Assembly (NCBI GenBank): GCA_001724265.1
Contig: MEDY01000063.1
Location: forward strand, 62,001 to 112,698
Direction of reading: 5' to 3'
DNA: 50,698 bases
From: Rhizaria sp. SCN 62-66
Lineage: Eukaryota
Positions 1-49,445 of this stretch are shown piece after piece; within the stretch, counting starts at the first letter, position 1; each line of letters opens with the position of its first letter. Position numbers and translations under genes: made by a program. Below the pieces are notes generated by a model that did no database searches, was not told the DNA's origin, and saw nothing but the letters and a program-made list of their open reading frames with translations.

Positions 1-11
1 TGAGTACGTAC

Positions 12-1305: not shown

Positions 1306-1595
1306 GCAGAGGCGGGACCGAGAGGGACGGTGACCTGGAGGGGTGGCGGGGCGCGGGGAGCGAAAAGCGGGAGGACGAAGTTGCAGTTGGTGAGGGGGCC
1401 GTAGTGTGAAAAAACAGGGGTCGGAGCGAGACGGGACGTCAGGTTGGAAAGAAACTACAACAAATTCAAATAGTAAATCAGCGTGTCACTGTTATATACG
1501 CTATTCATATATCTCTCTGTCGATGGGAAAGACCTCTAGGCTCATCTGCCTTCTACGGTGTCCGTGATTGCTGCAGTTGCTTGCTGGAACCATGC

Positions 1596-3330: not shown

Positions 3331-5439
3331 TCACTCAGTCTTCTAGTGGCTGTGGTTGGCAGCATCGTCCGACTTTTTCGGTCCCCCCGCCGCCGCGGTG
3401 GGCACGAGTTTGTTCATGCGGGCCTTGATCTCGGTGAACTCCCGGCGTGCGCGGTCCACCTCGTCCTTGCCCTGCGGCGTGTAGCCAACGGTCCCGCCCA
3501 GCGCGTTAGCCAGCGTCATCACGAGGCCCGCGGCGTCCCACAGACCCTGCAACAAGAGCGAGAAAACATAACATTGTGGGGTGAGAAATTGGTCGTGTTT
3601 ACTCGGAGTCGAGTATCTGCTTCAAAAAGTGCGTGAATTTGCGTGATATAAACAACTTATACACCCAAATTTAAATATACGACCAATATAGCGTGTTTTA
3701 TGTTTTGGTCGACGTACCTGGTGGACAGTCCAGCGCACCATGGGCATGGGCACGGTCACAGGGACCGGCGCGCCAGAGGGGTCGAGCACGGTGACTGTGA
3801 GGTGCTGGGAGTGGTAGTGGCGCAGCAGCGGCAGCGTCTCCTCGGCGTACGACTGCAGGCGCGTGTGGATGATCTCGGGCGTGTCGTCGCCGCGCTGGAT
3901 CAGATGGCCCTGGCACTGGACCGAGACAACACAGATACAAAATGAAAATATGTGATATAACATGAGTTACAAATGAAATGTTAGGATATAGCAAGTTGAA
4001 TATAAATACATTATCCCAGTAACGCATACGACTGTTGACATCGATGTTCGTTATCAACAAAGCAAACATAGAAATGGCACGTACGTTGTCGCAAATGCCC
4101 TCGACCTTCGGCAGGATGGCGGGCATGAAGAGCTCGTGGCCGTGCTCGTCCCGCTCCACAACGTGCGCCGTGTTGTACCCGTCGCCGCACGTGTCGCACA
4201 CGCGGCGGCCGAGTGCCTTCTTGACGATCACGTCCTCCTTGAGCCGCACCTCGAGCACGACATTGGGCGTCAGCGTGGGGCCAATGACCAGCGACGCGTC
4301 GCGCATCGTCTGGTGGTTAAGCCGCGCCGTCTCGAGCGTGCGGTCCGAGCCGGGCACGGGAGGGCGGTCGGTCTTGCCGCGTCGGGTGACGAGGTCCCAG
4401 ACCCACGCGCCGAAGGTCTGGAACAGTGCCACCGGGTCCTTGCGCTTGCTCATCGTCAGCTGGTGGAAGAGCTTGTACACCGGGTCCGGCTCGGCCGAAG
4501 TGAAGGCCATCGAGCCGGCCGCCTTGTGCTCCGCAACGAGCTTATCCCACTCGCTGCGCAACACCTTGTCGTCGTTGTCCTTCTCGAAGTACGCGCGCTT
4601 ATCGCTACGCTTGTCGCGGGCGGTCGTCTGCAGGTTTGCCAGAAGGCTCTCCAGGAGCGGGGCCTGCGACGCGCGCCGAGGGAACCCGTCCAGGATGTAG
4701 CCCTTGAGCACGTCCGACTGGCTCATGCGCTTGTCCAGCAGCGACAGCACCAGGTGGTCGTCCACGAGCGCGCCCCGCGATGTGAACGACTGCAACTTCT
4801 TGCCTAAATCGGAGCCCGACTTGATCTCGTTGCGGATCAGTTCACCCGTCGAGATCGTGGGGACGCGGAAGGCAGAGGAGAGATAGCGCGCAAAGGAGCC
4901 CTTGCCGGAGCCGGGGGCGCCGAGGATGATGCAGCGGAAGCCCGCGGGCAGGTGGGTTGCGAAGCCAGCGGCCTGGAGATATTCGAGATCAGTGAACGAA
5001 CAAAATAAAACAAACTAGTTAGATTTGAAGAGACAGATCTGCATTGGTAGATATGATACATTCGTGACGCACAGAAAAGATATGGATGCATTGTTATGTC
5101 AAATGAGATGTCAATAGAGAACGATTATCCATAGGTATGTTAGCGTGTTTTGTAAGAACGCACGTGGAGGGTGGGGGGCTTGCTGACGCGGAAGCCCGCG
5201 AGCGCCTCGGCCGAGAGCGACTCCGCAGCGGCAAAGCCGCCGGAGGGAGCAGCAGCAGCGCCCGGCGCGGACGTGGTGAAGCGCGTGGAGCTCGTGGTCG
5301 TGACGGCGGAGCGCGGGGCCGAGCGGGCGGCGGCGTTGCTGCTCAACGAAGACGAAGTGGACGACGAGAGAAGAGTGTTGTTGATGCGTGAAAACGCGCG
5401 CATGGCGTGCTTGGGACGCTGCGAAACAGTGGAAAGCAT
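3331..5439 (-). CDS. Adenylate kinase with Cys4 (zinc) LID and probable mitochondrial presequence; exons 5439-5164, 4972-4085, 3915-3718, 3546-3331 (ends at 3343 if TAG is the stop)
   Basis: IILGAPGSGKGS P-loop, ISTGELIR, GYILDGFPR, LID RRVCDTCG..CDN|CQGHLIQRGDD, and an S/R-rich N-terminus. Three GT-AG introns join in frame. Start codon is uncertain (5439 or 5403). Last exon reads ..CAC TAG AAG ACT GAG TGA. Confidence 0.88.
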
Positions 5440-11638: not shown

Positions 11639-13068
11639 ATGACGGCACGTGAGATTACAAGCCGTGGCCGCGTGCCTTTGACTAGCACGACCTAGGGCTT
11701 CAACATATTCGCCCGCGCCAGCTCCGACTCTGGGTTGTCTGAGTCCCTGTCGAAGTTGAAGGCGGGTGTTCAAGTCACAGTCGATGCCCTCCGGTCCGGC
11801 GCGTTTAAGCCGCCCTCAAAACTGAACAAGCAGCAGATCACGACGACCTGCCGGCTCCCCGAGGACGGCATCGCGCTCATGCCAGGATTCCCCGGGCTGG
11901 ATGCCGGCGATGAGCTCTTCGCAACCAGGGACACGTTCCTGCTCACGGAGCACATCCTAGCCATCCACGAGAGCATCAAGGCAAACGACCTCTCGCCCTG
12001 GACCTCCACGGCGCGCCGCCGCAACCTCATTGCCAACTCGGTTCTTGACGACGCGATCCTGAAGCGCAAATCCGACGCCGAGCCCTACATCGACTACCCC
12101 AACGACGTGCTCGACGCGTTCCCGCATCTCGCCAAGCGCAGGCCGCTGCGCCTCACGCAGCTAGGCAAGTGCATGTATAAGGGCGCGCTCGTGCACGGCA
12201 TTGAAGGCCGCGGTAATTCCACCGCGCTGAACTTTGCGCTCTTCAAGCTCATCGCCCGCGGCACGCCGGTGCTGATCGAACTAGCAGGCCATCACGTCAT
12301 CTACGTGCCGGGTCGCAAGGGCGAGGTCGAAGTGGTGCCGATGGCAAAGCGTCGCAACGACCTCCCGGGCAAAATCTTCGATGTAATCAAAAACAAAAAC
12401 ACCGTGTACGACTTCGACCCGCAGCAGCTGCCGCGCGAGACGGTCAAGGGCAACTACGAGCCTCTGGCCGACGCCGCGTGCGTCATCATCCCCACAGCGC
12501 CCAACGAAACGGCCGGCGAGTGGCGGCACTTCTACGCCACGTGCGCGCCGCTGCTGCGTCTGCATCTCTACGACCTGAGCAAGGAGGAGTTCTACGCCGT
12601 CACGAGCGTAGTCAACCCAAACATCACGGCCGACCAGAAAGCCCACTACCGCAGGTGGCAGGGCACGGGGCTGCGCGATATTGCCAGCAACGACCTCAAC
12701 CGCAACCTCGATCCCGTCTTCCGCGCCGCCATTCTGGCGTACAAGGGGGAGTAGCTGTTGATGTCCGGGTTGAACACGGACCGCATCTTTAGCGCAGACT
12801 GCTCCGAGCGCCACTTCTTCGGGCTGCGGTGGCCCGACGGGATGAGCGACACTCACATGGCCACCGCGCTGCCGTACATTCACCGTGAGACGGCGCGGCA
12901 GATCCACCTTACCATGCGCGAGAACATGCAGGGGGCCCCGGGTACGCTGCGTACAACGAGACCAAGCACCTCATGCGCCCGGATCCGTTCGTGACGTTCG
13001 AGACTGTGCTAGGCCCGATCGAGAAGGAGATCGCGGAGGAGCGCCGCGACGAAGGCGCGCATGAATAA
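11639..13068 (+). CDS. RHS/Crinkler-like divergent P-loop NTPase-fold protein with two in-frame TAG codons (11693, 12752) and an apparent 1-nt frame slip near 12931-12942; possibly a pseudogene
   Basis: GC3-rich coding-like frame from ATG 11639 (or 11570). GALVHGIEGRGNSTALNFALFKL resembles the degenerate Walker A region of RHS/CRN-type NTPases. After GGGGGCCCCGGG the coding-like codon usage moves to the -1 frame (YAAYNETKHLMRPDPF..GAHE, TAA 13066-13068). Family assignment is by recalled resemblance only. Confidence 0.5.
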
Positions 13069-14174: not shown

Positions 14175-19717
<5,543 letters not shown>

Positions 19718-20306
19718 CGCGCAAAGGTCTGTCGCGCGTCACGGCAACGCAAGGAGAACGGTGTGCGTTACGCTTTGCGCGGGTGCAGACAAGATAACGC
19801 GGAGCTCGAGGTGAGGCAAGAGCAGGGCCTTCTGAGACACACAAAATAGCGTCGGCAAGTGTGAGGTGTCCGTCAATAGAAATATTGCAAATCGAAGTCG
19901 ATATTAAGCAGTAGATTCTAACTTTCCTGCAAATAAAATCATCCCTAGTGCGTATATACAGTCATTAGCTATCCTCTCGCAGAAAGTTCGGGACTAGTCA
20001 TCCCCACGCCGCCACTTGCTGAGTGCAAGACTCGTGAGTACAGTGACCGAAAACACCGAAGAGACTGCAGTAGAGCTCTAAAATATCCACGCATAGGAAT
20101 GAAACGTGACAATGTAGTATAAAATTTCGTGCTTTTTGTATTTTTCCTATTCATTTTCTCTTAGTTTATCATTATCAGTATCTAACGTTTCTAATATATC
20201 GTCTAAGCTCAGTCATACAAGCCGAGCCAAGCCCTTTCAACAACAAAAAATCTCATCATATAAAACAGTCATCGATCCCATATGCGTGCGCACCGTGTCC
20301 CGCCAC

Positions 20307-28700: not shown

Positions 28701-31700
28701 CTGCTGCCGCCGCCGCCGAAGACGTGGGTACCAACAGGACTGATGACGCCCGTGGGAGTCGTCGAGCTGCCGCCGGTCAGGTGCGATTGCGACGGCTGCT
28801 GCTGCAGCGGGAGCTGCGCGAAGCTATTATTGTGGCTGCTGTTGTAGCTCGACGTGAGGTGACCGTGGGCACCATGCATTCCGTGTCCGTGCCCGTGCCC
28901 CCCGAACCCCGCCGATGACACCGACGGCGTCAGCCCCCTGCCTGCGCCGGCTCCGGCGCCGCGCACGCGCCCGCGCTCCCTGTCGCGCTCGCGCTCGCGC
29001 TCACGGTCCTCGCGCGCTTTCATCTTGGCCGACGCGGCCGCCGCGGCAGCGCGCGCTTCGGCCTCGGCCTGCGCCTCCTCGCGCGCCTTGGTGGCGGCGC
29101 GCTTGGCGACGGCCTCCGCGGTGGCCGTGTCGATCAGGCCGAGCTCGCGCATCACCGTGCGTGCGCGGCCGCGGCGGCGCAGAGAGTCGACCCAGCGCAG
29201 CCTGTGAACAAGAGTAGTGACGAGGAGTTAGAGGCATACATGAGCGAAATTTGAGACACATGCGAATTAACACGCGTTGCGTTATGATGTGATTGTGCAG
29301 TTGTGGGGGAATAATGTAACGTACCTGGCTTCCATGCCAGTGTCTTTGCGGCTGCGCGTATGCTCCGAGAGCTGCGGCCGCAGCGACAGCGGGTCGCGGC
29401 ACGCGTACGCGCGGATGCTGGCGTCGAGGCGCGTGATGAGCGCCAGCGTGGCGGTGAAAAAAAGTCCGAGCTGCTTGCGAATGCGGTGGAACTTGAGGAA
29501 GAAAGAGCCCGCAAAGACGAGCAGAACCTTCTTGAGGCGAGCAGCCTGTTGATGCAGAAAGTGTAAAGCAAAGTTAAGACCAGATAGGTTTGAAGCACAA
29601 GATGTAAGAATGAGGGACTAGAAACAGATACACGTATATTACGCGCCAGTGCAGTTGAATTATACAGATTATGGCCACCGCAATTTGGTGCGCGCAATTT
29701 TGAGTGCGTACCTGTTCGCGCTTCTCGATGTGGACTGCGCAGAGGAGGTAGAAGCGGCGGTCGAGCTTCTGGATTTGGCGCCGCTGCGCCAGCAGCTCGC
29801 CCTGGGCTAGCTCCCGGGCTGCCACGGCGGCGTCCTTCTCGCTCTCCATGCGCATCAACTCGCTGTGAGCAAGACAAAACAAAACAAAGCAAGACGACAA
29901 TACAGAACGATCGTGAGGCGACTAGAATAAAACACATTTCATGCCGCCGCGTGTTATAATAGAATACGATCGGAATAGACTAAATTGAAGATAGATGCAG
30001 AGTAAGCATATTTAAATCGGAGTATTATAAACATATTTGTTCATTTTTGATGCACCATATCACGTACCGTGCGAGCCTGGTCTCCTCGGCCTGCGCCTGC
30101 GTGACGAGCTCGAGCCCGCGGAGGAACTTGCCGTGCGCCACGAGCTCGGCCTCGCGCGACTTGCGGCTCGCCGCCAGGTGCTCCGCGGCGTTCTTCTCCG
30201 CCGCCTCGACCAGCGCGGCCGCGTCCGCCACACTCGCCGCGCGCGCAGCGCGGGCGTCCTCGCTGGCCGCGGCCGCGGCCGCCCGCGCCGAGGCGAGCTC
30301 CGCCCGTAGCGCGGAGGCCTCGGCGCCCCGGTCGCGCCGCGCGAGCGCCAGCTCGTGCCGCAGCTCGCCCGCAGCCTCGGCGCCCGCCGCGGCGTCGGCC
30401 TCGGCGGCGGACGCGCGCGCCAGCGCCGCCGCGAGGTCGTCCTTGAGCTTGCGCTCGCGGCGCTCTCCACGCTGCCGCTGCTCTTCCAGCCGCGCGAGCT
30501 CGGCGGCGTGCGCGGCGCGCTCCGCCCGCTGCTCCTCGCGCAGGAGCGCCAGCTGCGCCTGCAGCTTCGGGGCAATGCCCAGCCCGCCGCCGCGCGCGAG
30601 TGAGAAGGCGGCCCAGTCGACGTTTGTTGCGCCGGGACCTTCGCCGGCGCCAGAACCAGTGCCGGCGGCAGCCGACTTGCCCGCGCCATCGGCGCCGCTC
30701 AGGTCGCTGGCGATGTTGAAGCCCGAGGCTGAGGCGGCCGAGGTGGGGGAAGTTAGGCCACCCTGGTTGCCGAATAAGCCGCTCAGCGTGGTAGCCGAGT
30801 TGTTGGTGCCGCGGTTGGTGTTCAGCCTCGCAGCACCCTGTTGTTGTTGCTGCTGCTGCTGTTGCTGTGGGTGGTGTTGCGCAGGGGTACTTAGATGTGT
30901 AAGTGCCGGCGTGAGCAACGGCAGGTGCGAGTACTGGTTCAAGAACGCTGGCCGCGGCTGCGGCAGGTTGGTCGCGGCCGCCAACGACGACTCTAGAATC
31001 GCCACGGTGGCGTCCGCGGCGTCGGCGTCGGCGGCAGCGGCGGCGGCAGCGGCGGCGGAGAGCGACGAGGGCGTCGCGGGCGGGGACCCGTTGCTGCCGC
31101 TGCCGCTGCCGCTCCCGCTGACGACAAGGGCATTGCTGCTCGAGCCAGAGCCAGAGCTCGAGCCAGAGCCTGCGGTGCTGTGGGTGTGCGAGGCCGAGGC
31201 GGCGGCGGCGGCGAGGCGCGCGGCGGCCAGCGCGACGCGGAGGCGGGAGATCACTACCACGGGCTCGGGCGCGTACAAAAACGGCAGCTCCGTGCTCTTG
31301 ATGCCTCCACCGTGGTTGCTGTTGCTGTTTGCAGAGTAAAGCGCGGTGAGGCGCGTTTGCAGCAAAGGCTCGAGGCCCTGGGGCACAGTCATGCTCACGG
31401 TCACGTTGAGGTTTGCACTAGAAGAGCTAGCATTGCCGTTCGCAGCGGCGCTCGCGGCGTTGACAAAGGCCAGCGCGAGCCCGGTCAAGTGGCCAACGGC
31501 GGCGTTGTTCGCATTACTGCTACCACCGTGCATCAATGAGGACGCGGTCTGACTTTGGTTAGTCAAGCCGCCGCGCGGCCTGATTTGCCGGTTCGCACTC
31601 GTCCCACGCGGTGTGAGCCGCTGCTGCTCGCGGTCAGCGCTGCGCTCGCGACTGCCGCTGCGGTTCGCGTTGGCGTACGCGTTGTTGTTGGCGGACGCGT

Positions 31701-34700
31701 TGTTGTTGGCGTTGGCGGCGTTGTTGTGGTGGGAGCTGATCGTGGACGCGTCCGGGAGGGGCGGCGGCAGCGACAACACGGAGTGCGGCGAGAAGCCCGG
31801 CATGGGCGCGTTCAGGCTGCTGTTCGCGCCCGCGCCACCCGCGCCTGAGACGCTCTCCGTGTCGTCGGCGGTGATGCCGGTGTTGCCGTTCTCGTCGTCG
31901 TTCGCAGTGACAACTTGGGGCACCGAGTTGATGTTGATGCCGTTGTTGTTGTTGTTGTTATTGTTGCCCGCAAAGAAGGTCTGCCGCGCGTTGTTGCTGA
32001 CGCTGCTGCTTTTGTTGCTGTCGGGGTCGTTTGAGTCGCTGGCGTTGTTCGCGGTGTTGCCGCCGCCGCCGCTGGTGTTGTGCGGGTCATGGTCGTCGAC
32101 GGTGACCGTGAGCCCCGTCGTCAGCGCGCGGTTGCTGCTCGCGGAATTTATACCCCCCGCGGCGACCTTAGACCCGCTGCCAGCAGCAGCCGCGGCGCTG
32201 CCGCCACTGCCCGCGGCCGCAGTCCCGCCCGTGGCCGATGCCCCTGCGGCAAGCGCCGCAAGGCCCACGGAGCCGGTCTGGCGCCGTGCGTGGCCGCCCC
32301 TGCCGCGCGCGCTGGCGCCGGCACCGGCGCCGCCGCCGAGGGTGTTTGAGTTCGTGGGGGGCGTGGGCAAGCGGCCCTTGCCGAAGCCGCCGGCCATGTT
32401 CGCGATGGCGTTGGCGGTCGTGTTGGAGGCGGCCGTGGCGGCGGCGGCCGCGGCGGTGGCGGTGAGGGCGTGCGCGAGGGCCAGCGTCCAGGGGTTGCTC
32501 ACAGTCATGCTCACACTCACCCCAGTTGCAGCACTCGAGCCTGAGCCTGAGCCGGAGCTAGAGCTAACGTCGTCGCTGTTGCTGGCAGCGTCGACGGAGG
32601 GGCTGTGCGGCGAGTCCGCGCGCTTCTGCTGCTCAGTGTAAGCGTCCTGCTTGTACTCGAGGTCGCGCAGCCGCGAGCCGCGGACGACGGCGGGCGCGGA
32701 TGAGGCCGAGACGAGCGAGGTGAGCTCGGAGACCAGCGCAGTCGTCAGCTTCTCCTTCTCCTCCTGCTCACCCACACTCGCGCTCGCGCTCGCGGCGGCG
32801 GCCCAGGCGGTGGTCTTCTTGGCCCTGCTACCGCCGCCCGCGCCGGCGCCGGGCAGCGCGGGCGTCGTGTTGGTCGAGCGCGGGGGGAGACCGGCGCCCG
32901 TGCCGGTGACGGAGTTGAGCCCGCTGGCCGAGGGGAGCAGCAAACTAGAGCTGGGGTTGGCGGGGTTAAACGCGGGGGAGCCGTTGCCGCTCATCGGGAC
33001 GGGGGACATGATGCCGCTGTTGGTCGAGCCGCCCACAGTGTTATTGTGACCAGAGGTGCTCACGGCCGCGTCTCCCTCAGTCAGGCCACCAGCGGTGCCG
33101 TTGGGGCCGACGAAGGACGACGACGACACCGCGCCGGAAGTGTGGCCGCCGGCGCCGACACCGAGGGGCGTGGGCGTGGGCGCAGCGACGCGCAGACCGA
33201 GGTTGGGGGAGCCGCGCTTGCTGTTGAAGCTGCCCACACCGCTGCTGTTGCTGCCACTGTTCGCGTCGCCCTTGTTAGCACTGTTGTTGTTACTGTTAGC
33301 TCCGCCAACAAGGTTGCCGGAGCTATTGTTGTGGGTTAACGTACTGTTCATACCGGTGCCATTCGGGTTAGAGATGCGGGACAGCGCGCGCTTGCCCCAG
33401 ACGAGAGCCTTGTTACGCAAGTCCTGAAACGCTACAACAGCGGCCGCGACCTCGGCCTCGGCCTCGGCCGCCTCGGCCGCGGCGGCCCGCAGCAGCGCCG
33501 CAAACAGTGCGGGGTACAATTGCTCAATGCTGGCAATATCGCGGTAGGCCAACACCGCGATGTGGCAGTCAGACTCGGCCACAACGTCGCACGCGCGGCG
33601 CGGCTTAAGTTTGGGACTGGAGGCCGCCGCGGAGGCGGTTGAGTCGGTTTTGTGGTGGTGAGGCGGCATCGACGACGACGCGGCGACAAGCGCACTCGAG
33701 TTACTTTGCTGAGCGCTGTTGGTTTTGCTGTTGCTGTTGCGGTAGTAGTGGTAGCCGCCGAAGCCCATCACGCGGCCCAAAGGCACAACGAGCACTTCGG
33801 ACGATGAGTTGCTTGCACTGGGGCCAGCAGCAGTCAGAGTCGCCGGATTCGCTGCGGCCGCCGTCGCTGTCGCAGAGCTGCTGCCGGCGATCGCACCCGC
33901 ACCCGCACTCGCGCTGCTGCTGCTGCTGCTGCTGCTGATGCTGTTGCTTGAGCTGCTGGAAGTGCGCTGGAGAGCGATCACACTGCCTGTAAGAGGAATG
34001 AAGGCGAAAGTCGCGACGTCGCCGTACTTGCACACAGTCTCTCCGGCCCGTAGATGGATGACCGTGAGCAGGCGCGAGAGAAGCGCGGCTAAGGGGGCCT
34101 CGGTCGCATCTAAGGGTCCCTTGGACGCAGACAACGGAGAGCCGCTTTCAAAGCCGGCGTCAGAACTGCTGTTGCTGTTGTCAGAGCTACGGGTCAGGTT
34201 GAGCGCGGTGGCCAAAGGCGAGGGCTGGCCCGAGGAGCCCCTTAGACATGTAAGTGCGTCCTTGAGCAGCGAGAAGACGACCGCCTCCGCCTCCGCCTCC
34301 GTCTCAGCAGCGCACTTGTCCTCGCTCTCCTCATGCGCGCCGTGGCTGCTCTCCGCCGCGCTCTCGCCATCCTGCGCCTGCGGCTTCACAGTGTGGGAGA
34401 ACAGCGCGGGCGCGAGCGAGTGCGGCAGCCACTTGACGAACAGGTCGCCCCGGTTGACGCTGAGGCCGGCCAGCGCGCCTGTGGCGACAGTGTGGGCGGG
34501 AAACGACGCGGGCAGCGGGAAGTTAAGCCGCGACGGGGCGACGTTGAGCCGCCCGTTAGAAGAGTTCAGCCTGCCTTGGTTGCTGCTCGAGCTAACAGTC
34601 GTCGTCATATTATTGCCCGTTGTCGTCGTCGTTGTTGTCACAGTCATCATCATCGTCGTCGTCGTCGTCGTGCTGGTGGTGGTGGTGACTGTGCCGGCGT

Positions 34701-37700
34701 TGCTGAGCTGTTGCTGCTCGTGCTGCTGCCACAACGCGCTGCCGATGTGATCACCGTAGAAGCCGCACATGTTATTGCTCCAGACGTCAAGCCCGCTCCC
34801 GGTGCCGCCGAACGCGCCGTTCGCGTTGGCGGGGTCAACCGCGAAGCCAAACCCGCCCATGGACAGAAGCGCACCGCCGTTGCCGGCGTTGGCGCTGCTG
34901 CTGCTGGCGGCGGTCGCGGGTGACGACAGAGGCGAGAAGTGCATTGGCAGCGCGCTGCTCTTAGTGTTGGTTGTGCGCCTCGGGTTGACCGCGCCACTCG
35001 TATTGCCAGTCGTGGTAGGCGTGATACCCACGTTGGCGTTGGTGTTGCTGCGCGTGTTGGTAGCGTTGAGAGCGCTCGTCGACCGAGGACTCGCCAGCCC
35101 ACCGCCGCCGCCGCCGGCGCCGCCGCTGGCGTGCGCGTGCGGGTTGGGGGCCGGGCTCGGGGACAGACCGAGCACCGACGACGACACGGCGCTGCTGTGG
35201 CCGCCGCCGTGCACGTTGCCGCTGCCGCTGGTGTGCGTGCCCAGGGACGGGGGGCCGGGGGTGTACGAGTAGTGCTGCCCGCCGGGCCCCAGTCCGCCCG
35301 AGATCGACATCCGCCGCTGCGCAGAAAGCGACATTGCATTGGGAGCGTTGATCGTGCCGCCCGCGGCGCCCTTGTTATGCGCGGCGGCGGCGGTGGCAGC
35401 GGCGGTAGCGGTCGTGACGGCCGCGGAGCCGCGGCGGCCGGCGGCGACGGCTGCGGGCCGGCCCCGGACAGCGCTGCCGCCCGCAGCGCTACTGCCGTGG
35501 GCCGCGCCGTGCGCGTTCGCAGCACCCGGGGTGGTGTTACCGTTGTTGCTGCTGTTGCTGACGAGCGCGCTCGCGTGCAGATTGCTGTGGCTGCTGAGGT
35601 GGCTGCCGCTGTTGTTGTTGGCGAGCGGGGTGCCTGCGCTCGACTGGCGCGAGATGACTCCACCCTTGGCCAATGTAGACTGCGCCGCCGTCGGCGTCCG
35701 GTTGCCGGCTGACGAAGTCGCCGCGGTGGGCGAGTTGCCGTGGGCGGGGGAGGACGGCTTCGAGGGGGGGCCGTGGGTCGGAGAGGTCGGCTTCGAGGGG
35801 GGACCGTGGGCAGGAGAGGTGGCCGGAGAGGAGAGTCGGGAGCCTGCACTCGTGCCACGAGCCGGCTTGGCTTTCGTAGGGCTGCTGCTGCCGCTGCTAG
35901 CGTTCGCATTTACGGTCGCAGCCGCATTGGGGGTTCTAGAGCGCGTGCCCACAGCGTCGTCAGCCGCGCTGGCGTTGACGTTCACTCTAACAGCAACATT
36001 TGCGCTTGAATTAATGCTCGCGCCCGCAGTGGGATTGGGCGCAGTGTTGTTTGCGGTGCTGATCCCGATAGGGTTAGTGTTGTTGGCGTTGTTGTTGATT
36101 GACTTGGTGATGTTGAGGACAAGGTCAGCGTCGTCGTCGTCATCGCCATCGTCATCGTTGGTATCACTGCTATTGTCGCCGTCATCCTTGTTGATCTTTG
36201 CAGGCGCGCTCGCGTAGAGGGCGTTTGCCGTGCCCAGGCTGCTGCGGGTGCTCATCGCTCTCGCCGTGTCGCCGTCACCAGCAATCGCGCTCGCGCTTGC
36301 ACTCGCACTGGCGCTGGCACTGGCGCTCAGGATAGCGCCCGCCTGCGGGTTCAGAGTGTTGGAATCGTTGTTGGTGTTGGTGTTGTTGTTCACCGCCTTG
36401 CTGTTGCTGCTGCTGCTGCTGCTGCTGCTGTTGCTGTGGCTGATGCTGTTCGTGCTGACTTGCCCCAGCGTGCTCACGCTGTCCGAGCTCGTCAGCCGGC
36501 GCCGGCGGCTATTTGTGCTGGCGTTCTTGCTCGCGCTCGCGCTACGGTTGCTAGACCCGACCGCGTGCATCGTCGCCCTCAGGTGGTTGCGGCTCGCGGT
36601 CTGACTCGCGCTATGACTTTCATCGTCGTCGTCGTCGCCGTTGTCGTCGCCGGCGTCGTAGTGGTGCATGTCGTCGTCGTTGTCGTCAGCGTTGTGCGCG
36701 CCGTCCCCGTCGCCCTCGTCGCTGCTGTTGAGCGCGTTGTGGTTGCGGAGACTGAGCCGGTTCGTCGTGAAGATGCTGCCGCGGGGCTTGCGCAACGCAT
36801 CACCGTTCTCGGCCTTCTCCGTCTTCTCAGCGGTGTCAGCCGCAGCCGGCGGCTTCACGTTGTGGTCGACAGCCTCGTCGATAATGAGAGTGTGCTTTTC
36901 AGGAGTTGCCGCATTGTTAGTGTTGTTGTTGTCGGCCTCAGTGGGAGCCTTGGCGGCCTTACCAGCGCTTGAGCCACTGCAAACACTGTTCTTGTCGGCG
37001 TTGGCGTGTGCTTCAGCAGCAGCATCAGCCGTGTTCGCGAGCTCGCTGTCGACGACTGCGACAACGGGGGTGTTTGCAGTCGCACCATTCAGGTGAGCGC
37101 TGTCACTGGCACTGACATGCGCACTGACATGTGCGCGAGCACTGGCGTTGTCGTCCTGACTATGATTGCGACTGGAATTGGATGCGACTGCTGCTGCGGC
37201 ATCAGCGTCGCCGTCATCTCTCGCACTGGCGCTCGCACTGCGGTTAGCTGCAGCACTTGCACTCGCACGGGCACTGGCGCTGGTGCTGGCGCCGTCACGG
37301 ACTCTCGCAGCAGCACTGGCGGCCTCAGCAGCGCTGTTGTTGTCTGCGGCGCTTGCCTTAGCAGCATCGCTGGCATTGACGGCATCACTGGCGCTGACAG
37401 CAGCGCTGCTATGGTTGCCGTTATGCTTTGGAGCGAGGTCGGTGGCATTAGCATCGCTGCTAGCGCTGTCGGCAGCGTCCAAACCAGTCCCTGAGGCAGC
37501 GTGAGCAACTCTAGTGTTGTCGTCGTTGCCCTGATTACGGCCATCGTCGCCATCGCTGTAAATGTAGCTAGCATTGCTGTTGCCGTTCGCGCTCGCGACG
37601 TCATTGTTCTTGTCCTACTCGTCCTCATTGACTCCGCTCCGACTACCCGGGCCGTCGGCGCTGTCAGCCTGCGTTTGCGCCTCCGCCTCCGCCTCCGCGT

Positions 37701-38943
37701 CGTCGTCGCCCTCGGTCTCGGCGAAGCTGCCCAGGTTGCCGTTGCTGCCGGTGGTGTTGTTGTTGTGGAGAGAGTGCGAGTCGTCCGACAGCGAGATCGA
37801 CGACCGTGTCGTCGGCTCGGGCAGCGCCGCCAGAGAGGGCCGCGGCATCGCGAACGCGTCCGCCAGAGAGCCATCGGCGAGAGTGGACGAGGACTGCGAG
37901 GGCGATGCCAACAACGACGACGAGGACGGGAGCGGGGGCGCGAGCAAGTGCTGCTGCTGCGACTGCGCTGAATTAGCGTGGGTATCCATGTGCGCATCAA
38001 CAGTAGCATCAGCATCAGCGTCAGGCGTTGCCTCGGCCTCGGCCTCGGTCTCGGCATCAGGCTCAGCTTCAGGGGCAACAATCGTGGCGTCGTCGTCATC
38101 GTCATTACCGTTGATGTCAGTGTCATTGATGTTATTATGAATGTTATTGTTGTTGTTGTTGGGCACAAAGGAGTGCAGAGTGATGTCTTGCGCCGTGGCA
38201 GTCGCATTGCCAGCCATGACAGCAGCGGAAGTCGCCGTCGCCGCCTCAGCCGTGTCAGACGCAGACTTCGCCTCCGCATTAGCCTCAGCATCTGCCTCCG
38301 CATGAGCCTCAGCCTCAGCCTTAGCCTTGGGCTCGGCCAAAGCCTCGGGCTCGGCCAAAGCCTCGGGCTCGGTCACAGCGGCAGCGACAGCGGCAGTCGC
38401 AGCGTCCGCCTCAGGCTCGGCTTCCACAGCAGGCTCGGCATCAGACTCATCAGCTTCCACGTCAGCCTTCGACTCGTGCTCAGGTTCAGGCTCAGCATGA
38501 GCCGCAGACTGAGTCTCCTCATCGTCGTCAGCCTCAGTCTCAGCCTCTGCGTCGAGGTTATCGGTGGCAGTTGCAGCTGCAGAGCCGTCGCCGACTCTGT
38601 CGCCCTTGTGACTGGCAGTAGCGCTGGCAGCAGAAATAGCAGCAGCTTCGGTCGCGTCCCCGGCGTCGGCGTCCGCAGCGTCAGCTGACGCGCCGTTGCT
38701 GTTGTTGTCAGCGTTGCTACCGACTTCGTCGTCATCATTAACTTCTCTGTTGTTGTCGTGGCTGCCGTTACGAGTGCGCGCGGCAGAAAGCAACAGACGC
38801 ACGGCGCTGCCGCTATCGCGAGCGCTCACATTGGTAGCAGCGACATCAGCGTCAGCATCAGCAATCGAGGCAACCGCAGGAGTGGCGACTGAGGCAGAGG
38901 CTGGGACTGCCTCGTGTTGGGAAGGTCCCGGTGAGTCAGACAT
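25713..38943 (-). CDS. Giant (~4,186 aa) low-complexity A/S/N/G-rich protein with a cyclic-nucleotide-binding-like domain and C-terminal coiled coil; exons 38943-30068, 29862-29712, 29545-29325, 29201-27275, 27098-25713; one in-frame TAG at 37615-37617
   Basis: ORFs 37615-38943 and 30025-37482 share a frame and are separated only by one TAG plus 44 sense codons. Four GTACG-AG introns join the downstream exons in frame (12,561 nt total). cNMP-like segment IHLRAGETVCKYGDVATFAFIPLTGSV..G..RRACDVVAESDCHIAVL at ~33500-34075. Ends TGA. Confidence 0.72.
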
Positions 38944-40166
38944 CGCTCAAAGCGGCTTGCTCACGCAAATGATGAACACAAGCGTAAAAGGCCTAGCTGT
39001 AGGTTCAGAAAACAGTCAAAAAGAAAGCGTATGGGCAGTGAAATTCAGGAAAAAGCAAGCTTGGTCTGAGAGAGAAGCTGCTGGGGCAGAGAGGGACGAG
39101 GAGGGGGCGCAGAGAAGGGGTTAGAGTGAGACTTAAGGAAAATAAAGGAACACAATTAAAATGAAAAAGAACAAAGAGTACAATACTTGAAATGCGGGTT
39201 TGTTGACGAACAAAAAAGCGCGATAGAGGTTCCTAAAGTTGCTGCGACTGGATTGCAGAGTAACTGCAACGGACTGGGTCACGGTCACTTTGCTGGCGCC
39301 GACTGGCGAAGATGAATCGAACACGAATAGAACGAGTCAAGACTAACGTTGTTTGAATTAAAACGTAGATTTATACATTTGTAGAACTGTTTATTGATCA
39401 TATTAAAACGACTCACTTTCTATATCAAAGAACAAATACGTCATCACCATAGAGAAACAAAAATAATCAAAGCCCACCAAGCACATTGCGCGTGTGCTTG
39501 GAATATACTTTAATAGTACGTCTTATCTTGTTGTTGTTGTTGTGGTTTGCCCGACATTATTAAGCGTTGCCATAGCCGTTGTTGTTCGTTCCATAGGGAG
39601 TCGTCGCATCAGTAAAGCAGCAAGTAGCAAACAACATCAGAGTGAGTTGCGTGATAAGGACGACACCTCTCGTGCCGTGTGACTGCTGCTCGCGCGCTGT
39701 TGTGTGGTTTGTTGTTCGTACAGTGCTGAACCAAACAATCTAAGTAACGTATAGCACTGACACACCAGGAACAACAGAAGCGAGAAATTACGGCTACATA
39801 ATCCGATTGCGACCGCGCCTCAACGCTCCCCCGCTCGCGTCCCATTCGCACACCTACCAGTGAACACGAATCGAACGCGTAAAAACAAACAACACGACAA
39901 AACAACGCTCACTTGCTGATTTTCCGCCCGTTTCTGTTGTGTGTTATATCTTGTCTTCATGTTTTCTTTTCTTTTGAACTTATATTTTACACTCTCATAA
40001 CCTCCGTTGTCGGGTACAGTCTCTTGACAAGGCAAAAAACTCACACAACTCAAGACTTAGGCTTTACACTAGTGCGTTATAGCGATGCCATGAGTCCGAC
40101 TTGCTGTGCGTGTTTACCCCTATCTCCACGTAAGTACCCCATAGACAGTCTAAGTATCCTGTGCGC

Positions 40167-42087
40167 TTAGATGAAGCCGTCGTCATCGAAGACGTTGTCG
40201 TCGAGGGCGTCCTCGAGGGTGGCGAGGTCGAGCTTGTAGCGCATGATGCCGCCGATGCCACCGAAGCCCTTGCAGAACTGGGAGCCTTCCTGGGACTTGT
40301 CGCTCACGAAGGCGATCTTGGCGCCGAACGACTTGTAGTTGTTCGACAGCCACTCGACCATGAGCTCCTGTGTAGTCGCGATGGTGCGCAAAAGCAGAAA
40401 ATGAGACATATAAATGAGGTGAGTTAGATTCACGTAAAGGATTTGTTGTTGTTGAAAATATCATTGTTGACATTGAATACACTCGAGAGTAATTTAAGCA
40501 CGACTAATACACATTTTGGCTCGTTTTAGGACATACCTGGTCGACGAGGTCGAGGGCGACGTCGTCGGCGGTCTTGAAGAACGAGGGGTCGCGGGTCTCC
40601 TCCTCGTTGTCGACGATCTTGATGACCGTAGCGCCGGTCTCCTTGTTGCGGAGCTCGAAGCGGATCATCTCGAGCGCCTCCCAGACGATGATGGTGTCGA
40701 CGGCCGAGGCCTCGAGCGCGTTGAGCGTGTCCTTCCAGCCGAAGCAGTAGAGACCAGTGTCGCGGGAAATCTCACTGAAGAAGTTCGTCAGCAGGGTCTT
40801 CTCGCGCATGAACTTGACGTCGCGGAGGGAGTCCGCAGCCATGTCGATGGCCTGTGGGGAAAGGGTTCGGAAGCGAGAGATGTGTGAGTAACAGTTGCGA
40901 AATACGATATAACACAAGATGAACACATACAATACATTAACCAATAAATACTACGACAAGATAATTGCAAAGGGATTGTGCGTACCTGAGCGAAGCCGTT
41001 CTCGCCGCCGTATGAGATATCGACGATGTTGAGGATGATGTTCTGCAGACGGGGGTCGAAGGTATTAGCCTCGGCGAGCTGGGCCTTGAAGTCGGCGGAA
41101 CCGGCGAGAATGAGGCCGGCGACGTTGGGCATGTTGTTGGTGATGAAGATCTGCGTGGTGAGCTCGGCGACCTGCGTGATGTAGTTCTGGCGCTTCTCCT
41201 TGCGGATACGCGCGAAACGGGGCGCGGACTGACCACCACGGCCGTGCTTCTTGGGCAGGTCGACGGAGATCTTCTTGAGCACGACGCGCGCGTTGCCGGC
41301 GAGCGTGCCCCAGAGAGTGCCGGAACCGTCCATGATGATGAAGCCGTACTTCTCGTCGTCCTCGAGCAGGCCGCGGAGCGCCTCGGTGTGGAACTGGTTG
41401 TCGCACATGTACATGGACGTGTTGATGGGCTTGAAGGGCTCGACGTCGATCGAGACCTTTTTCTACTTGCCGTCGGAGTTGAGCACTTCACCGCAGTACA
41501 GGATGAGGCCGTTGTTGGGGATGCGGGGGAAGAGCTTGAGGCGCTGCTGGACGGACGTGATGGCGGACAGCACGGAGAGGCGGTTCACGCGGGACTTGAT
41601 GTTGGAGGCCTTGGAGTACTCTTCCGTGAGCATGGTGGAGATGCGCGAAACCTGTTCCTTGGGGGGAACGACCAGGGAGATAACGGACGAACCATTGCTG
41701 TAAAGTCGCGCAAGGAAAACAAGAGTACGGGAGCGAAGGCGGACGAGATCACGGGCGCAGAGTGAAAAGCGGGAAGTGTAGGGAGGAAGTTTGGTTGGGG
41801 TGGACAGGGGATGGAAAATTAGAAGGGAAGAACGCACAAAAACAGAGTGCGGGGAGAAATACAAGGAATAATAAAGTGAGTTCTACTGCGCAATGTATGT
41901 TACATAGCCGATTGGCGGGTGATACGAAGCACAGGAAAGGCGCAAAGCGCGGCACGAGAGAGGTTGAAGGGCAAGGAGAGAAGACGGACCCGCGCGCAGC
42001 CTCGAGGTTGCGAATAAGCTTCTTGAGCTTCCATTGCTCAATAGCGAGCTCCTCAGGATCGAGGTTATGAGGCTTCTTAACGGACAT
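40167..42087 (-). CDS. ETF1: Eukaryotic peptide chain release factor 1 (eRF1), 441 codons, with in-frame TAG at codon 111; exons 42087-41990, 41697-40986, 40851-40537, 40367-40167
   Basis: [75 protein letters not shown] (GGQ), [10 protein letters not shown] and [16 protein letters not shown]. Three GT-AG introns join in frame. Ends TAA. Confidence 0.97.
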
Positions 42088-42203
42088 GTTCGGACTAAAC
42101 ACAAACTACCGGGTTGAGCGAAGGATTACACCAAAAATGACGTGTTGCGAAACCCCCAATGGGCCGCGCCGACCCGGCCCACACACAAAAAACACACGCG
42201 GAT

Positions 42204-42216
42204 TTTTTTGCGAACC
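42204..42216 (+). promoter_or_regulatory. Candidate promoter motif TTTTTTGCGAACC (between divergent eRF1 and PRR11-like)
   Basis: 12/13 match to the motif at 1596-1608. Confidence 0.4.
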
Positions 42217-42602
42217 AGTCTCGTTGCTGGCTGGTTCTCAACAACGGATAGATTCGCCATTATTTTAAAAGCGTATCAATCTCTGTATACACAACGCCCA
42301 AATGTGGATATAACGAGTGAACAGGAAGATTATGCAATGTTATGTTTGGGTTGCATAATAACTTTTCTTTTCTTGCCGCAAAGAGGACGAACAATGAGCT
42401 TGAATGAAACATCCAAACGAGAGCCTCTTGCATGCTCACAGTTCCTTCCATTCCCCAGCCATTTTCAAGGCTGAACCAATATATTTCTAAGTATAGACTC
42501 ACCACACAAAACAAACAACTACATCACACTTCAACACTCTTTCACAATTTGCGATATGGCTTTTGCACCCCGAATATCTTGTTTCGCAGACTCAACGGCT
42601 CG

Positions 42603-44711
42603 ATGGTTCGCCACCGTGTCGGCATGAGCACGTCCCGCCGCGCCTCCCTGCCGGCCGACCCTTCCTACATCCACGAGATCCTCGCCACGCGCGCGCCTAG
42701 GACGTCTCTTGCGCCCGTCGGCGAGAACAAGAGCAACCGCTTTGCCGTGCTTTCCCGCTCGCCCAATGGCAACAACAGCCGCGATGGCCTTGGTTCTCCC
42801 CTGTCCCCCTCACGTGCTCATAACAACGGCGGCCGCAGCCACAAGCGCAACCTCGCCTCTGGCACCACCTCCGTGCGCGGCAAGGAGCTGTTTCTCTCCC
42901 TCCGCAAGCGTTACACCGACAACACTCACGCCAACGGGAGCAGCGGCAACAACGCCAATGCTGACTCAATCGCTGAGAACGACGAGTTCAATGGATCGAT
43001 CCCTGCCACCTTCGAAGACGCCGTCGCCACCACGACGTCCCCCGCTAAGCCTAACAACAGCGCGCGCCGCCTGAGCACCGCGTCGTCTGCCACCACGCCC
43101 ACCTCGTCCCCTTCACTCTCTCCTTCCAACACCACGCACACCAACCATAACAACAACAGCAGCGTTCACAACAACGCAGGCATCAGCACCCGCCCGCGCA
43201 CCGAGCGCGCTCAGCTGAGCACCGCGGCCACTGCGACTGCCCCTGTAATGACGGTGCCCGAGCCCCTCGCCGCGGTTACGGCCCCGCAAACCGGGCTGAT
43301 GCAGCGCCTCTTCAGCCTCGTGCGCTGGCCCTTCACAGTCCTCGGTGACTACCGCACCGGCCGCGCGCTCCGCCTCGCACCCGCCGCCGCGGCGGCGACC
43401 GTGGGCGGCACGGGTTCCGCGGCTCCTGCGGTTGTGGGTTCCGGCGTGGTGACCGCGGACACACACCGCATTCGCCGTCTCCGCTCGCGTGTGACCGCGC
43501 TCGAGACCAAGCTCGAGGAGCTCCAGTCCACCATCGCTAACCTCGCCAGCAACCGCAACGGCAGCGCCGGCTATAGCAGCCACATCCCGCCCGCTCCTGT
43601 GTTTAGCAGCGGCAGCCACATGTCCGGTCCCCCCGCGCCTGTCGGCGTCGGTGCCCCGCCGCCCCCGCCGATGTTCGATTTGTTCGGCGACGATTTCTCG
43701 CTGCCCACGCCTGCGCCCGTAGAGAAGACCTGGAACCTCAACAAGGGCAACAACAACAACAACGCGAGCAAGAGCAGTGCCGCCGCGAAGTCCACCGGCC
43801 CGCTTGTCACTGTCGAGGCACTGCGCAGCATCAAGCTCAAGTCGGCCGCCGAGCGTACAGTCGGCGCTGGCGCTTTCCCCGCCACGCCGAGCAAGTTTGA
43901 GGGCGGGCCGCTGGTCAGTCTCGAGCAGCTGCGCACGGTCAAGCTGCGCAAGGTCCAGCCGCGCACGGCCGCGGGCGCTAACGGCGAAGGCGACTGCGCA
44001 CAGGCACCGCTGACCCCGGCGCAGGAGGCCGCCCGCGCGCGCGCCGCCAAGAGCAGCGGCAGCGTGTTCATCCCTACGCTGCGCGACATCACGGGCGTGA
44101 AGCTGCGCTCGACGGCGATGCTGCGGTCGCCGGGCAAGACCCCACACAAGGCCAAGCTTAAGTCGCCCGAGCAGGCGGCGATGAACCCGATCATGCTGCT
44201 GCGGCGGCGCATGTTGGGCAGCCCGCGCACGCGCGCGACGCTCAAGCAGCGCGAAAGCGAGCATTCAAGCAAGCAGGACGCCGACGAGGACGACTTTGCC
44301 GCTGCGAGCAAGGGCGCTGATGTCATTAACGCGCCTGCAACTGCAACTGCGGCTGCGGCGGCGGCCAGTGAGGGTGGTGAGGCGACTTCTAGTGGGCAGG
44401 CTGCGGCGACTGTGCTCGGATCGCCGTCTGGCTTTGCGACTTCGCATGTGAAGCGTGCTAAGGCGGCGTCGCCTTCTGCTAACAGTATTGCAGACAGTGT
44501 TGTTGTTGCTGATGCCAATGATGAGAACAGCGTTGTTTTCCTGTCCCCTCCTCGTGTTCGCGAGAACTCGAAGACTGCTGCTTTAAGTGCGCAGAGCAAA
44601 CTCTCCGTGAATAGCAACAACGGCAGCGGCAGTGGCCGCAAGAGGGCTGTGTTGGGCGAGGTGACATCGGCGTCAAAGAACATCCGCGCCGTCGACTTCT
44701 CGTTTGCTTGA
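42603..44711 (+). CDS. Proline-rich protein, PRR11-like (coiled coil, polyproline, three 'L..VKLK/R' WH2-like motifs, C-terminal D-box-like motif)
   Basis: Intronless ORF with RLRSRVTALETKLEELQ coiled coil, PPPPPM, repeats LVTVEALRSIKLKS / LVSLEQLRTVKLRKV / PTLRDITGVKLRST, RSPGKTP and RAVLGEVTS. Resemblance to PRR11 is from recall. Start may be 42603 or 42624. Ends TGA. Confidence 0.6.
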   Translation: MVRHRVGMSTSRRASLPADPSYIHEILATRAPRTSLAPVGENKSNRFAVLSRSPNGNNSRDGLGSPLSPSRAHNNGGRSHKRNLASGTTSVRGKELFLSLRKRYTDNTHANGSSGNNANADSIAENDEFNGSIPATFEDAVATTTSPAKPNNSARRLSTASSATTPTSSPSLSPSNTTHTNHNNNSSVHNNAGISTRPRTERAQLSTAATATAPVMTVPEPLAAVTAPQTGLMQRLFSLVRWPFTVLGDYRTGRALRLAPAAAAATVGGTGSAAPAVVGSGVVTADTHRIRRLRSRVTALETKLEELQSTIANLASNRNGSAGYSSHIPPAPVFSSGSHMSGPPAPVGVGAPPPPPMFDLFGDDFSLPTPAPVEKTWNLNKGNNNNNASKSSAAAKSTGPLVTVEALRSIKLKSAAERTVGAGAFPATPSKFEGGPLVSLEQLRTVKLRKVQPRTAAGANGEGDCAQAPLTPAQEAARARAAKSSGSVFIPTLRDITGVKLRSTAMLRSPGKTPHKAKLKSPEQAAMNPIMLLRRRMLGSPRTRATLKQRESEHSSKQDADEDDFAAASKGADVINAPATATAAAAAASEGGEATSSGQAAATVLGSPSGFATSHVKRAKAASPSANSIADSVVVADANDENSVVFLSPPRVRENSKTAALSAQSKLSVNSNNGSGSGRKRAVLGEVTSASKNIRAVDFSFA

Positions 44712-45046
44712 GTCGGCGATCAAGCTTGAGTATAATTGTTCGCGCCTACTTATTGTTTGCCTGCACAAACTCTCAAATATGTTGCACAATTTATCATCAT
44801 TTTTTGGAAGTTTATTTTCAGGGCCCTGTTTTAGCTGGATTTGCACTCTTGACGGCGACTGCATGGTTTGGCACCACGCTACGCTTGCCCGTGAAAGGGG
44901 CAGATAAAACCGCATTTCGAAGGATCATAGTGGTCTTGAAGAATATTAATAATACAGTAAGTGAAACTCTCAAATATGCTTTTATCAGTATCGTATGTTA
45001 CGTTCAGTCGCGATGCAAACTGGCGAGGCAAGATGCGTGTTACTTC

Positions 45047-48800: not shown

Positions 48801-49012
48801 TCGTTGGCGAGGCAAGCGTCGTAGGCCTTGGAGAGGCCCGCGGCGACGTCGCGCGTGAAGGAGTTCACGGGCGGGTTGTTGATCATGATGAGCGCGACGC
48901 CGTTCTGGACGCCCGCGATGGACACGACCTCGGCCGCGGCCGGGGCGGCGACGAAGTTGGGGGACACACCCTTGAGGAGCACGTCGAGACGAGTCTTGGC
49001 CTTGGAATCCAT
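45846..49012 (-). CDS. Multifunctional fatty-acid beta-oxidation protein (enoyl-CoA hydratase + 3-hydroxyacyl-CoA dehydrogenase; MFP2/AIM1/EHHADH-like); exons 49012-48266, 48074-47679, 47494-47372, 47181-46843, 46645-46274, 46094-45846
   Basis: INNPPVNS, FMAGADI, ALGGGCELAMGC, GLPELKLGVIPGLGGTQRL, VAILGGGTMGAGIA, VIEAVIE, LATNTSTI, GLHFFSPAHIMPLLEIV, GFVANR and GYGFPAYRGG. Five GT-AG introns join in frame. Ends TAA. Confidence 0.95.
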
Positions 49013-49445
49013 TACTAGACGATCTACAGAGAGGAAAAGAATGAGAAGGAACGATAGGATAATGATGTGGGCAATGTTATGGGATTGTTGTAGCAAGAAT
49101 TGTTGTACATAGCGATAAGAAAACGAGTGCGGAGAGAGGGAGCCACCCCTCCGCTGTTTCCTAAAGGTCAACACGTTAGACACGAATTGCGCCTAAAAAA
49201 ACGCACACGGGGGTCGTGTGATAAAACAGAATAGCCCCTACAAGCAAAGTTCTATTCATACCAGCCAATGGAATCTTATCTCCATAGCGCGCCGTGTCGC
49301 TCTGAGTGCATCTTAACGCAACCCCGATGTCACGAAAGAGAGGAGGGTCAGCAGCACCGTCGGCGACGCTGCACCGTCGGAGCGATCCGACCGAGTCAGA
49401 CCGAGCGAGCCAACCACAAACGAAAAATTCATGCAGCGGCTGGGA

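Follow-up and report, generated by a model that had tools for sequence, protein, structure and literature searches.

The bacterial release-factor gene prfB autoregulates by a +1 frameshift, and the regulatory elements of prfB and of plant eRF1-1 are conserved. Plant eRF1-1 autoregulates by readthrough and nonsense-mediated mRNA decay (NMD), according to the cited sections of PMC5397192, and the eRF1b gene of Euplotes carries an in-frame UGA, read as Cys, at position 132 of its N-domain coding sequence (cited sections of PMC3025575). Nuclear codes in which UAG alone has become sense, with UAA kept as a stop, are described for Rhizaria sp. exLh (Leu), Iotanema spirale (Gln), Scotinosphaera (Ser), and phyllopharyngean ciliates (Leu, and Gln twice) in the sections of PMC5304391 and PMC11687900 used here. 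In these sections, the one report of UAG as Glu concerns a ciliate in which UAA also encodes Lys (PMC10553269, cited by PMC11687900). Here, we describe an eRF1 gene with an in-frame TAG in its N-domain, encoded on the minus strand of a 50,698-nt stretch of contig MEDY01000063.1 (assembly GCA_001724265.1, Rhizaria sp. SCN 62-66; positions 62,001 to 112,698). The whole stretch is called the window, and coordinates are counted from its first letter.

The 441-codon frame of this gene has one internal stop, the TAG at codon 111, and the gene is intact, transcribed, and spliced. We favor the reading that UAG is a rare sense codon in this organism, that TAA and TGA still terminate, and that the TAG of eRF1 is an ordinary, recent use of this codon; we put the probability of this reading at roughly 0.55.

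The eRF1 gene and its codon 111

The gene model was built by hand from the minus strand (42087..40167) and comprises four exons with a coding sequence of 1326 nt, giving 441 sense positions and a TAA. The three introns (292, 134, and 169 nt) all have GT...CAG borders. The stretch recurs in public sequencing runs of bioreactors, wastewater, and activated sludge, both metagenomes and metatranscriptomes, from several studies dating from 2015 to 2025. Among 14 such runs, 12 contain some part of it, and four contain at least half of the sampled words. Runs X3 (DNA), X4, X5 (cDNA), and X7 (polyA RNA) were compared as contigs over 30000-44800. Run contigs report presence and not levels, and their depths cannot rank expression, so no conclusion on NMD is drawn from them. 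The features of the gene are as follows.

41990..42087, minus strand: exon 1; ATG at 42087-42085, ends in phase 2; joint 41697/41990 present in X5 cDNA contigs
40986..41697, minus strand: exon 2, N and M domains, carries the TAG; Pfam eRF1_1 (E 4.3e-22) and eRF1_2 (E 9.4e-37)
40537..40851, minus strand: exon 3; Pfam eRF1_3 (E 1.3e-14); joints present in X5 contigs
40167..40367, minus strand: exon 4, with the TAA stop at 40169-40167; Pfam eRF1_3 (E 3.5e-14)
39418..40166, minus strand: 3' untranslated region, minimum extent; a spliced X5 contig reaches 39418
41463..41465, minus strand: in-frame TAG, codon 111 (CTA on the plus strand); in DNA of X3 and RNA-derived contigs of X5 and X7, GAG in one X4 contig
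41460..41462, minus strand: AAA, codon 112, the sole AAA among the 32 Lys codons of eRF1; AAG in the X4 relative
41229..41237, minus strand: GGQ catalytic motif, codons 187-189, 3' of the TAG; from the gene model

The exon 2 string given in the initial annotation (AAC TCC GAC GGC AAG TAG AAA AAG GTC TCG ATC GAC) is present as written. As also stated there, eRF1 homology is colinear across the TAG, with eRF1_1 and eRF1_2 matches on both sides in the same frame. A prfB-type frameshift is rejected, since the homology past the TAG stays in that frame. The rest of the gene is intact, in agreement with the earlier description: all three Pfam domains (eRF1_1, eRF1_2, and eRF1_3) match above curated cut-offs, and the motif set is complete, with NIKS at codons 65-68, YMCDNQF at codons 129-135, and GGQ at codons 187-189. 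The C-terminus (...DDDGFI) lines up with the ends of the homologs P0004 and P0005. Codon bias is strong, with Lys encoded 31 times by AAG and once by AAA.

The TAG is genuine and is no base-call error, because it is matched exactly in DNA from a separate study. Run X3, which belongs to another study than the probable source of the window, yielded a 1626-nt contig over 40351-41976 with 0 differences; the JGI contig L001 has the identical 1626 bases and may be the same data set. At the RNA level, one X5 contig joins 40366/40536 and 40850/40985, and another joins 41697/41990, which corresponds to the three predicted introns. The X5 cDNA contig over 41101-41697 shows 0 differences and retains the TAG, and so does the X7 contig from a third study (41035-41686, 0 differences). 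Editing or splicing-out of the TAG, for which a check had been suggested, is excluded by these spliced and polyA contigs. Since the gene is intact, spliced, and expressed, full-length eRF1 needs UAG decoding at codon 111, as had been proposed.

The initial annotation had taken the AAA that follows the TAG as a hint of a selected context. It is the sole AAA of the 32 Lys codons, in line with the near-constant AAG usage noted there. In the training set, AAA makes up 5 of the 99 Lys codons, so that its occurrence at codon 112 is no more than mildly unusual, and a single codon carries the hint.

Relatives do not conserve the TAG. In run X4, one contig from a close relative has GAG AAG at codons 111-112, compared with TAG AAA here. 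Across eRF1, the contigs of the X4 relatives carry 33 variant letters: 31 are silent substitutions at third codon positions, and the remaining two produce E148D and the change from TAG to GAG. Run X4 holds both forms of codon 111, with GAG at a depth of 4.93 of 8.13. Over 41061-41465, the same run holds at least two further eRF1 variants with at least 90% nucleotide identity and two alternative letters at 41139, 41160, and 41220. The X4 contigs imply that several related strains or species share the sample.

More distant homologs show a variable position as well. In the large protein collection, the nearest match is P0004, an uninterrupted eRF1 with 84% identity that is encoded on a metagenome contig of 5186 nt and has Val in the column of codon 111; the other 12 aligned homologs have Glu (11) or Asp (1). 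By cluster membership, the closest relatives come from metagenomes only. Among the 120 best matches to eRF1, which include P0004, the column was parsed in 112 and contains Glu in 105, Asp in six, and Val in one. A separate search among proteins of near length for eRF1 fragments broken at the TAG, in which half-length pieces score too low to appear, gave at least 120 matches, and the 120 listed are all at most 70% identical. Metagenomes were scanned for eRF1 loci by exact 8-residue patterns, and the P0004 contig was therefore missed. The scan returned 32 loci, among which L001 alone is close, being the same sequence, and the rest are at most 69% identical. Nine of these loci could be parsed at codon 111: L001 has TAG, and the eight others have Glu (seven) or Gln (CAA in L006). 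A search of the prokaryote genome collection for mis-binned contigs gave neither a relative nor an exact match.

Judging from these alignments, codon 111 is a tolerant, variable surface position of the N-domain that is usually Glu. The TAG is a recent, lineage-specific substitution that lacks conservation, because the X4 relative has GAG and P0004 has Val. GAG in relatives that share the code, without ribosome drop-off, had been named beforehand as a sign of neutral synonymous usage that would refute a regulatory role; the GAG AAG of the X4 relative agrees with this in part.

UAG in other genes and the stop-reading motifs of eRF1

The conclusions on the code cover one window of about 50 kb, in which the gene models other than eRF1 were made by hand without RNA support. 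Both strands were scanned for stops inside coding sequence by means of the codon usage of their own frame, with 40 codons on each side and no other stop allowed. The scan placed 2 of 643 TAGs, 0 of 706 TAAs, and 0 of 1389 TGAs inside coding sequence, and the ranking was unchanged when it was repeated with 30 codons on each side. Altogether, the coding sequence of the window, with about 13 genes, contains three in-frame TAGs, no TAA, and no TGA. The other two TAGs and the gene ends are located as follows.

37615..37617, minus strand: second in-frame TAG, codon 444 of a 2974-codon low-complexity frame (38946..30025, ATG at 38943); identified by codon usage
12752..12754, plus strand: third in-frame TAG, in the gene at about 11696-13068; the homologs P0242, P0243, and P0247 are colinear across it
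2858, 13066, 14177, 20309, 30025, 40169, and 45848: gene ends with TAA
10203, 25057, 44709, 25713, and perhaps 13520: gene ends with TGA
3331..3345, minus strand: end of the adenylate kinase gene, ...ANHSH TAG (3345-3343) AAG ACT GAG TGA (3333-3331), the sole candidate TAG terminator

The codon-usage score around the 37617 TAG is 0.54 upstream and 1.11 downstream in frame, compared with -0.93 in the other frames, and an X3 DNA contig over 37377-38614 has 0 differences. The peptide around this TAG is acidic on both sides (...NEDE-TAG-DKNND). The frame at 30025-38946 on the minus strand encodes a protein with Ala, Asn, Ser, Thr, and Gln runs, acidic repeats, and a coiled-coil-like C-terminus.

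The 12752 TAG lies below the score threshold of the codon-usage scan. A profile-free exhaustive search with the product of 11696-13068 gave eight matches in 1.84 billion representatives, two of which are the window's own pieces, and the residues in the TAG column of the three homologs are R, L, and D. This gene has a 1-nt frame change inside a GGGGGCCCCGGG run (G5C4G3) near 12935 (12925-12945, plus strand). Past this point, coding-like codon usage and a PF-containing tail like that of P0243 continue to the TAA at 13066, and the frame change may be a real frameshift, as in a pseudogene, or an assembly error. Two further fragments, P0245 and P0248, are homologous to different parts of the 11696-13068 product, and the longest contig of each has 100431 nt. 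They may be one gene that is split in a relative by an intron or an in-frame stop.

The three TAGs share no common context, the next codon being AAA in eRF1, GAC at 37617, and CTG at 12752; the two outside eRF1 read GAG TAG GAC and GAG TAG CTG. Candidate TAGs at 849, 5017, 6952, 11693, 21191, and 40506 were rejected as non-coding, lying in introns or upstream of exons, and further in-frame TAGs within long open frames are intron acceptors or intronic. About 12-13 gene ends could be placed, with TAA at seven, TGA at four to five, and TAG at none or one. TAG is never an unambiguous terminator in the window, with counts too small for significance. A peritrich-like code with UAA as sense is excluded, because the eRF1 frame ends at a TAA exactly where its homologs end.

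The stop-reading motifs of the encoded eRF1 are altered at three sites.

41685..41693, minus strand: GSS in place of GTS, codons 35-37; GTS in 120 of the 120 best matches
41592..41612, minus strand: KASNIKS in place of TASNIKS, codons 62-68; T in 118 of the 119 parsed matches, K solely in P0004
41391..41411, minus strand: YMCDNQF in place of YLCDNKF, codons 129-135; Q at this position in none of the 120 best matches

The residue before KASNIKS is S and not G. YLCDNKF is found in 112 of the 120 best matches, and P0004 has H at the position of the Q. This relative has part of the same altered pattern. The K and the Q of the present eRF1 sit at the equivalents of T58 and K130, respectively. In the cited sections of PMC3632111, T32 is described as invariant; it contacts stop codons with A in the second position, and its hydroxyl is needed to read UAA and UAG. 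The same sections tie KATNIKD of Tetrahymena and SIKD/DPQ of Paramecium, the latter with K130Q, to UGA-only specificity with loss of UAR reading, and suggest a disturbing effect of K130Q on the YxCxxxF loop (PMC3632111). Iotanema, in which UAG encodes Gln, carries T32G in its eRF1 (cited sections of PMC5304391). Since these motifs are extremely conserved outside ciliates (PMC10089648), the presence of three altered motifs in one non-ciliate eRF1 suggests altered stop recognition.

Pfam matches also define the neighboring genes of the window.

3-1485, minus strand: BMS1-like GTPase
45846-49192, minus strand: enoyl-CoA hydratase/3-hydroxyacyl-CoA dehydrogenase multifunctional enzyme

Besides eRF1, the window encodes a DnaJ protein, adenylate kinase, a RhoGEF-PH-FYVE-SH3 protein, alanyl-tRNA synthetase (AlaRS), and a WD40 protein by Pfam, as well as an RSP9-like radial spoke protein, from which it follows that the organism builds a flagellum; a homolog search with the radial spoke protein among longer proteins gave no match. 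The adenylate kinase gene (minus strand) has two introns in its 3' part. The AlaRS gene (14175-19738, minus strand) contains introns and long Ala/Asn/Ser-rich insertions within conserved domains. GC-rich exons, with a GC content at third codon positions (GC3) of about 0.8-0.9, are set in AT-rich introns and intergenic DNA. The source of the window is an uncultured, intron-bearing, GC-rich eukaryote of bioreactor and wastewater metagenomes.

Readings of the in-frame TAG

According to the favored reading, the organism would have a dedicated decoder for UAG, probably a CUA-anticodon tRNA, and the amino acid inserted would possibly be Glu. The substitutions in all three eRF1 motifs would weaken UAG recognition. 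A change from GAG to TAG would have occurred at a variable position of the N-domain and would have been tolerated, as the UAG is read through to the full-length protein; the TAG of eRF1 would then be no evolved regulatory device. We infer decoding of UAG throughout the genome, as well as the tRNA and the amino acid involved. UAG as a sense codon is favored because it explains several results at once: three TAGs with different next codons alongside no in-frame TAA or TGA, the missing clean TAG terminator together with the motif changes, and a TAG form that persists across years and sites, at the DNA as well as the RNA level. The view of UAG as a rare recoded codon, already taken in the initial annotation, fits the other TAGs of the window and the unusual motifs of eRF1. 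Two hints point to Glu: the GAG of the relative, since 32 of the 33 differences would then be silent, and the acidic residues near 37617.

Several points weigh against this reading. Three in-frame TAGs in about 13 genes is far below the usage in established codes with UAG as sense, in which the codon is present in 78-91% of genes (cited sections of PMC11687900). The 12752 TAG lies in a gene with a frameshift that may be a pseudogene, and the 37617 TAG is supported by codon statistics only. The 50-kb window contains no tRNA gene of any anticodon, CUA included. The TAG of the adenylate kinase gene may be nothing more than its terminator, and the gene-end counts (0-1 TAG of about 13) are below significance. 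Concerning the motifs, T32S alone is nearly neutral in human eRF1, with activity largely unchanged at all three stops (cited sections of PMC3632111). As for Glu, GAG is one mutational step from TAG anyway, and one eRF1 has Gln in this column.

The rarity of in-frame TAG, at three in about 13 genes, would also suit a UAG that is generally leaky and has no dedicated tRNA, with near-cognate tRNAs inserting residues in an ambiguous intermediate stage. The altered stop-reading motifs are consistent with such a stage, in which this eRF1 would read UAG poorly; codon 111 is variable (E, D, V, and Q in L006), so any residue might be tolerated there, and the TGA three codons after the adenylate kinase TAG would serve as a back-up stop. 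However, making an essential, abundant factor solely by near-cognate misreading would be costly, and the TAG of eRF1 has A at the +4 position, which is not a typical leaky context. We consider this possibility rather unlikely. The initial annotation had proposed a possible autoregulatory or self-checking circuit. Under such a circuit as an evolved element, the code would be standard, and the eRF1 TAG would be a site of gene-specific programmed readthrough with negative feedback on the eRF1 level, more eRF1 leading to more termination at codon 111 and hence to less full-length protein. The logic is sound, autoregulation of release factors is known from plant eRF1-1 and prfB, and two introns lie 3' of the TAG, so that termination there could trigger NMD; in addition, the sole AAA Lys codon of eRF1 follows directly. 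Such a circuit is nevertheless unlikely, as the TAG is unconserved (GAG AAG in the X4 relative, Val in P0004) and lacks a leaky context, TAG AAA AAG matches no readthrough motif known to us, and the downstream segment 41470-41345 folds with a z of -0.10, 86 of 200 shuffles folding as well. It would also leave the other in-frame TAGs and the altered eRF1 motifs unexplained.

A null or decaying copy would yield no full-length eRF1, with the function supplied by a GAG allele or by an intact paralog such as a P0004-like gene. Run X4 does hold both the TAG and the GAG forms, contigs can lose one of two alleles, and P0004 is an uninterrupted eRF1 with 84% identity. We judge this account improbable, given that TAG is the sole form in X3, X5, and X7 (three of the four runs) in a spliced and expressed gene, that the rest of the 441 codons is undamaged with 31 of the 33 differences from relatives synonymous, and that runs spanning 2015 to 2025 contain the sequence; moreover, the GAG contig differs at further sites, resembling another strain more than an allele. 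Ribosome hopping, in which the peptidyl-tRNA-Lys would leave the AAG at the UAG and land on the downstream AAA or AAG, is very improbable. The sequence AAG TAG AAA AAG offers matching take-off and landing codons, and the rare AAA arose together with the TAG, as the relative has GAG AAG. Against this, the other two TAGs (GAG TAG GAC and GAG TAG CTG) have no such match, hopping over stops is inefficient in the cases known to us, and a conserved loop would lose at least two residues.

Only with low confidence do we consider an early capture of UAG in a non-ciliate lineage, possibly to Glu, with UAA and UGA as stops and an eRF1 mRNA that already bears the codon and would act as a built-in ratchet. 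If this is true, any eRF1 that still terminates at UAG would lower eRF1 synthesis, favoring completed reassignment. Partial UAG termination by this eRF1 would entail automatic feedback; no result here points to such termination.

Comparison with known systems

In the portions of the literature covered here, few nuclear codes treat UAG and UAA differently; they amount to a handful of independent cases, nearly all of them fully established. If UAG is sense here yet present in few genes, an early stop-codon capture would become visible, including which eRF1 changes come first. A reassigned codon inside eRF1 would, if true, open the co-evolution of codon meaning and release-factor specificity to direct tests, as the organism is found repeatedly in wastewater reactors and public runs already contain its RNA. 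Gene-specific readthrough would instead be a new kind of eRF1 autoregulation, and the evidence speaks against it. A search of the literature for reassigned UAG in a wastewater eukaryote gave nothing relevant among the matches listed, and the combination of UAG as Glu with UAA and UGA both as stops was not found in the portions of the literature surveyed.

The locus resembles the UAG-sense nuclear codes in having in-frame TAG in conserved genes together with TAA as a stop, including the end of eRF1 itself. As in Iotanema, the eRF1 is changed at position 32 of GTS, to T32G there and to GSS here (cited sections of PMC5304391). It differs from these codes in that TAG is far rarer, the amino-acid hints point to Glu, and the code is a putative one. 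Unlike ciliates, it lies on a contig of more than 50 kb with many genes, is GC-rich, and has introns of 134-292 nt. Like Euplotes eRF1b, the release-factor gene bears a codon that would no longer be read as a stop, near YxCxxxF; the codon is UAG instead of UGA, and the code of the ciliate Euplotes is well established, whereas the one proposed here is putative.

Plant eRF1-1 and prfB share with this gene a release-factor output tied to failed termination in its own mRNA. In prfB, this is achieved by a frameshift, whereas the frame continues here and the TAG is missing from the nearest relatives. Plant eRF1-1 uses a normal stop and its 3' untranslated region, as described in part in PMC5397192, whereas the codon here is internal. 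UAG as a rare sense codon would thus make this a known kind of system, and what would be new is the lineage, the very low codon usage, and possibly the amino acid.

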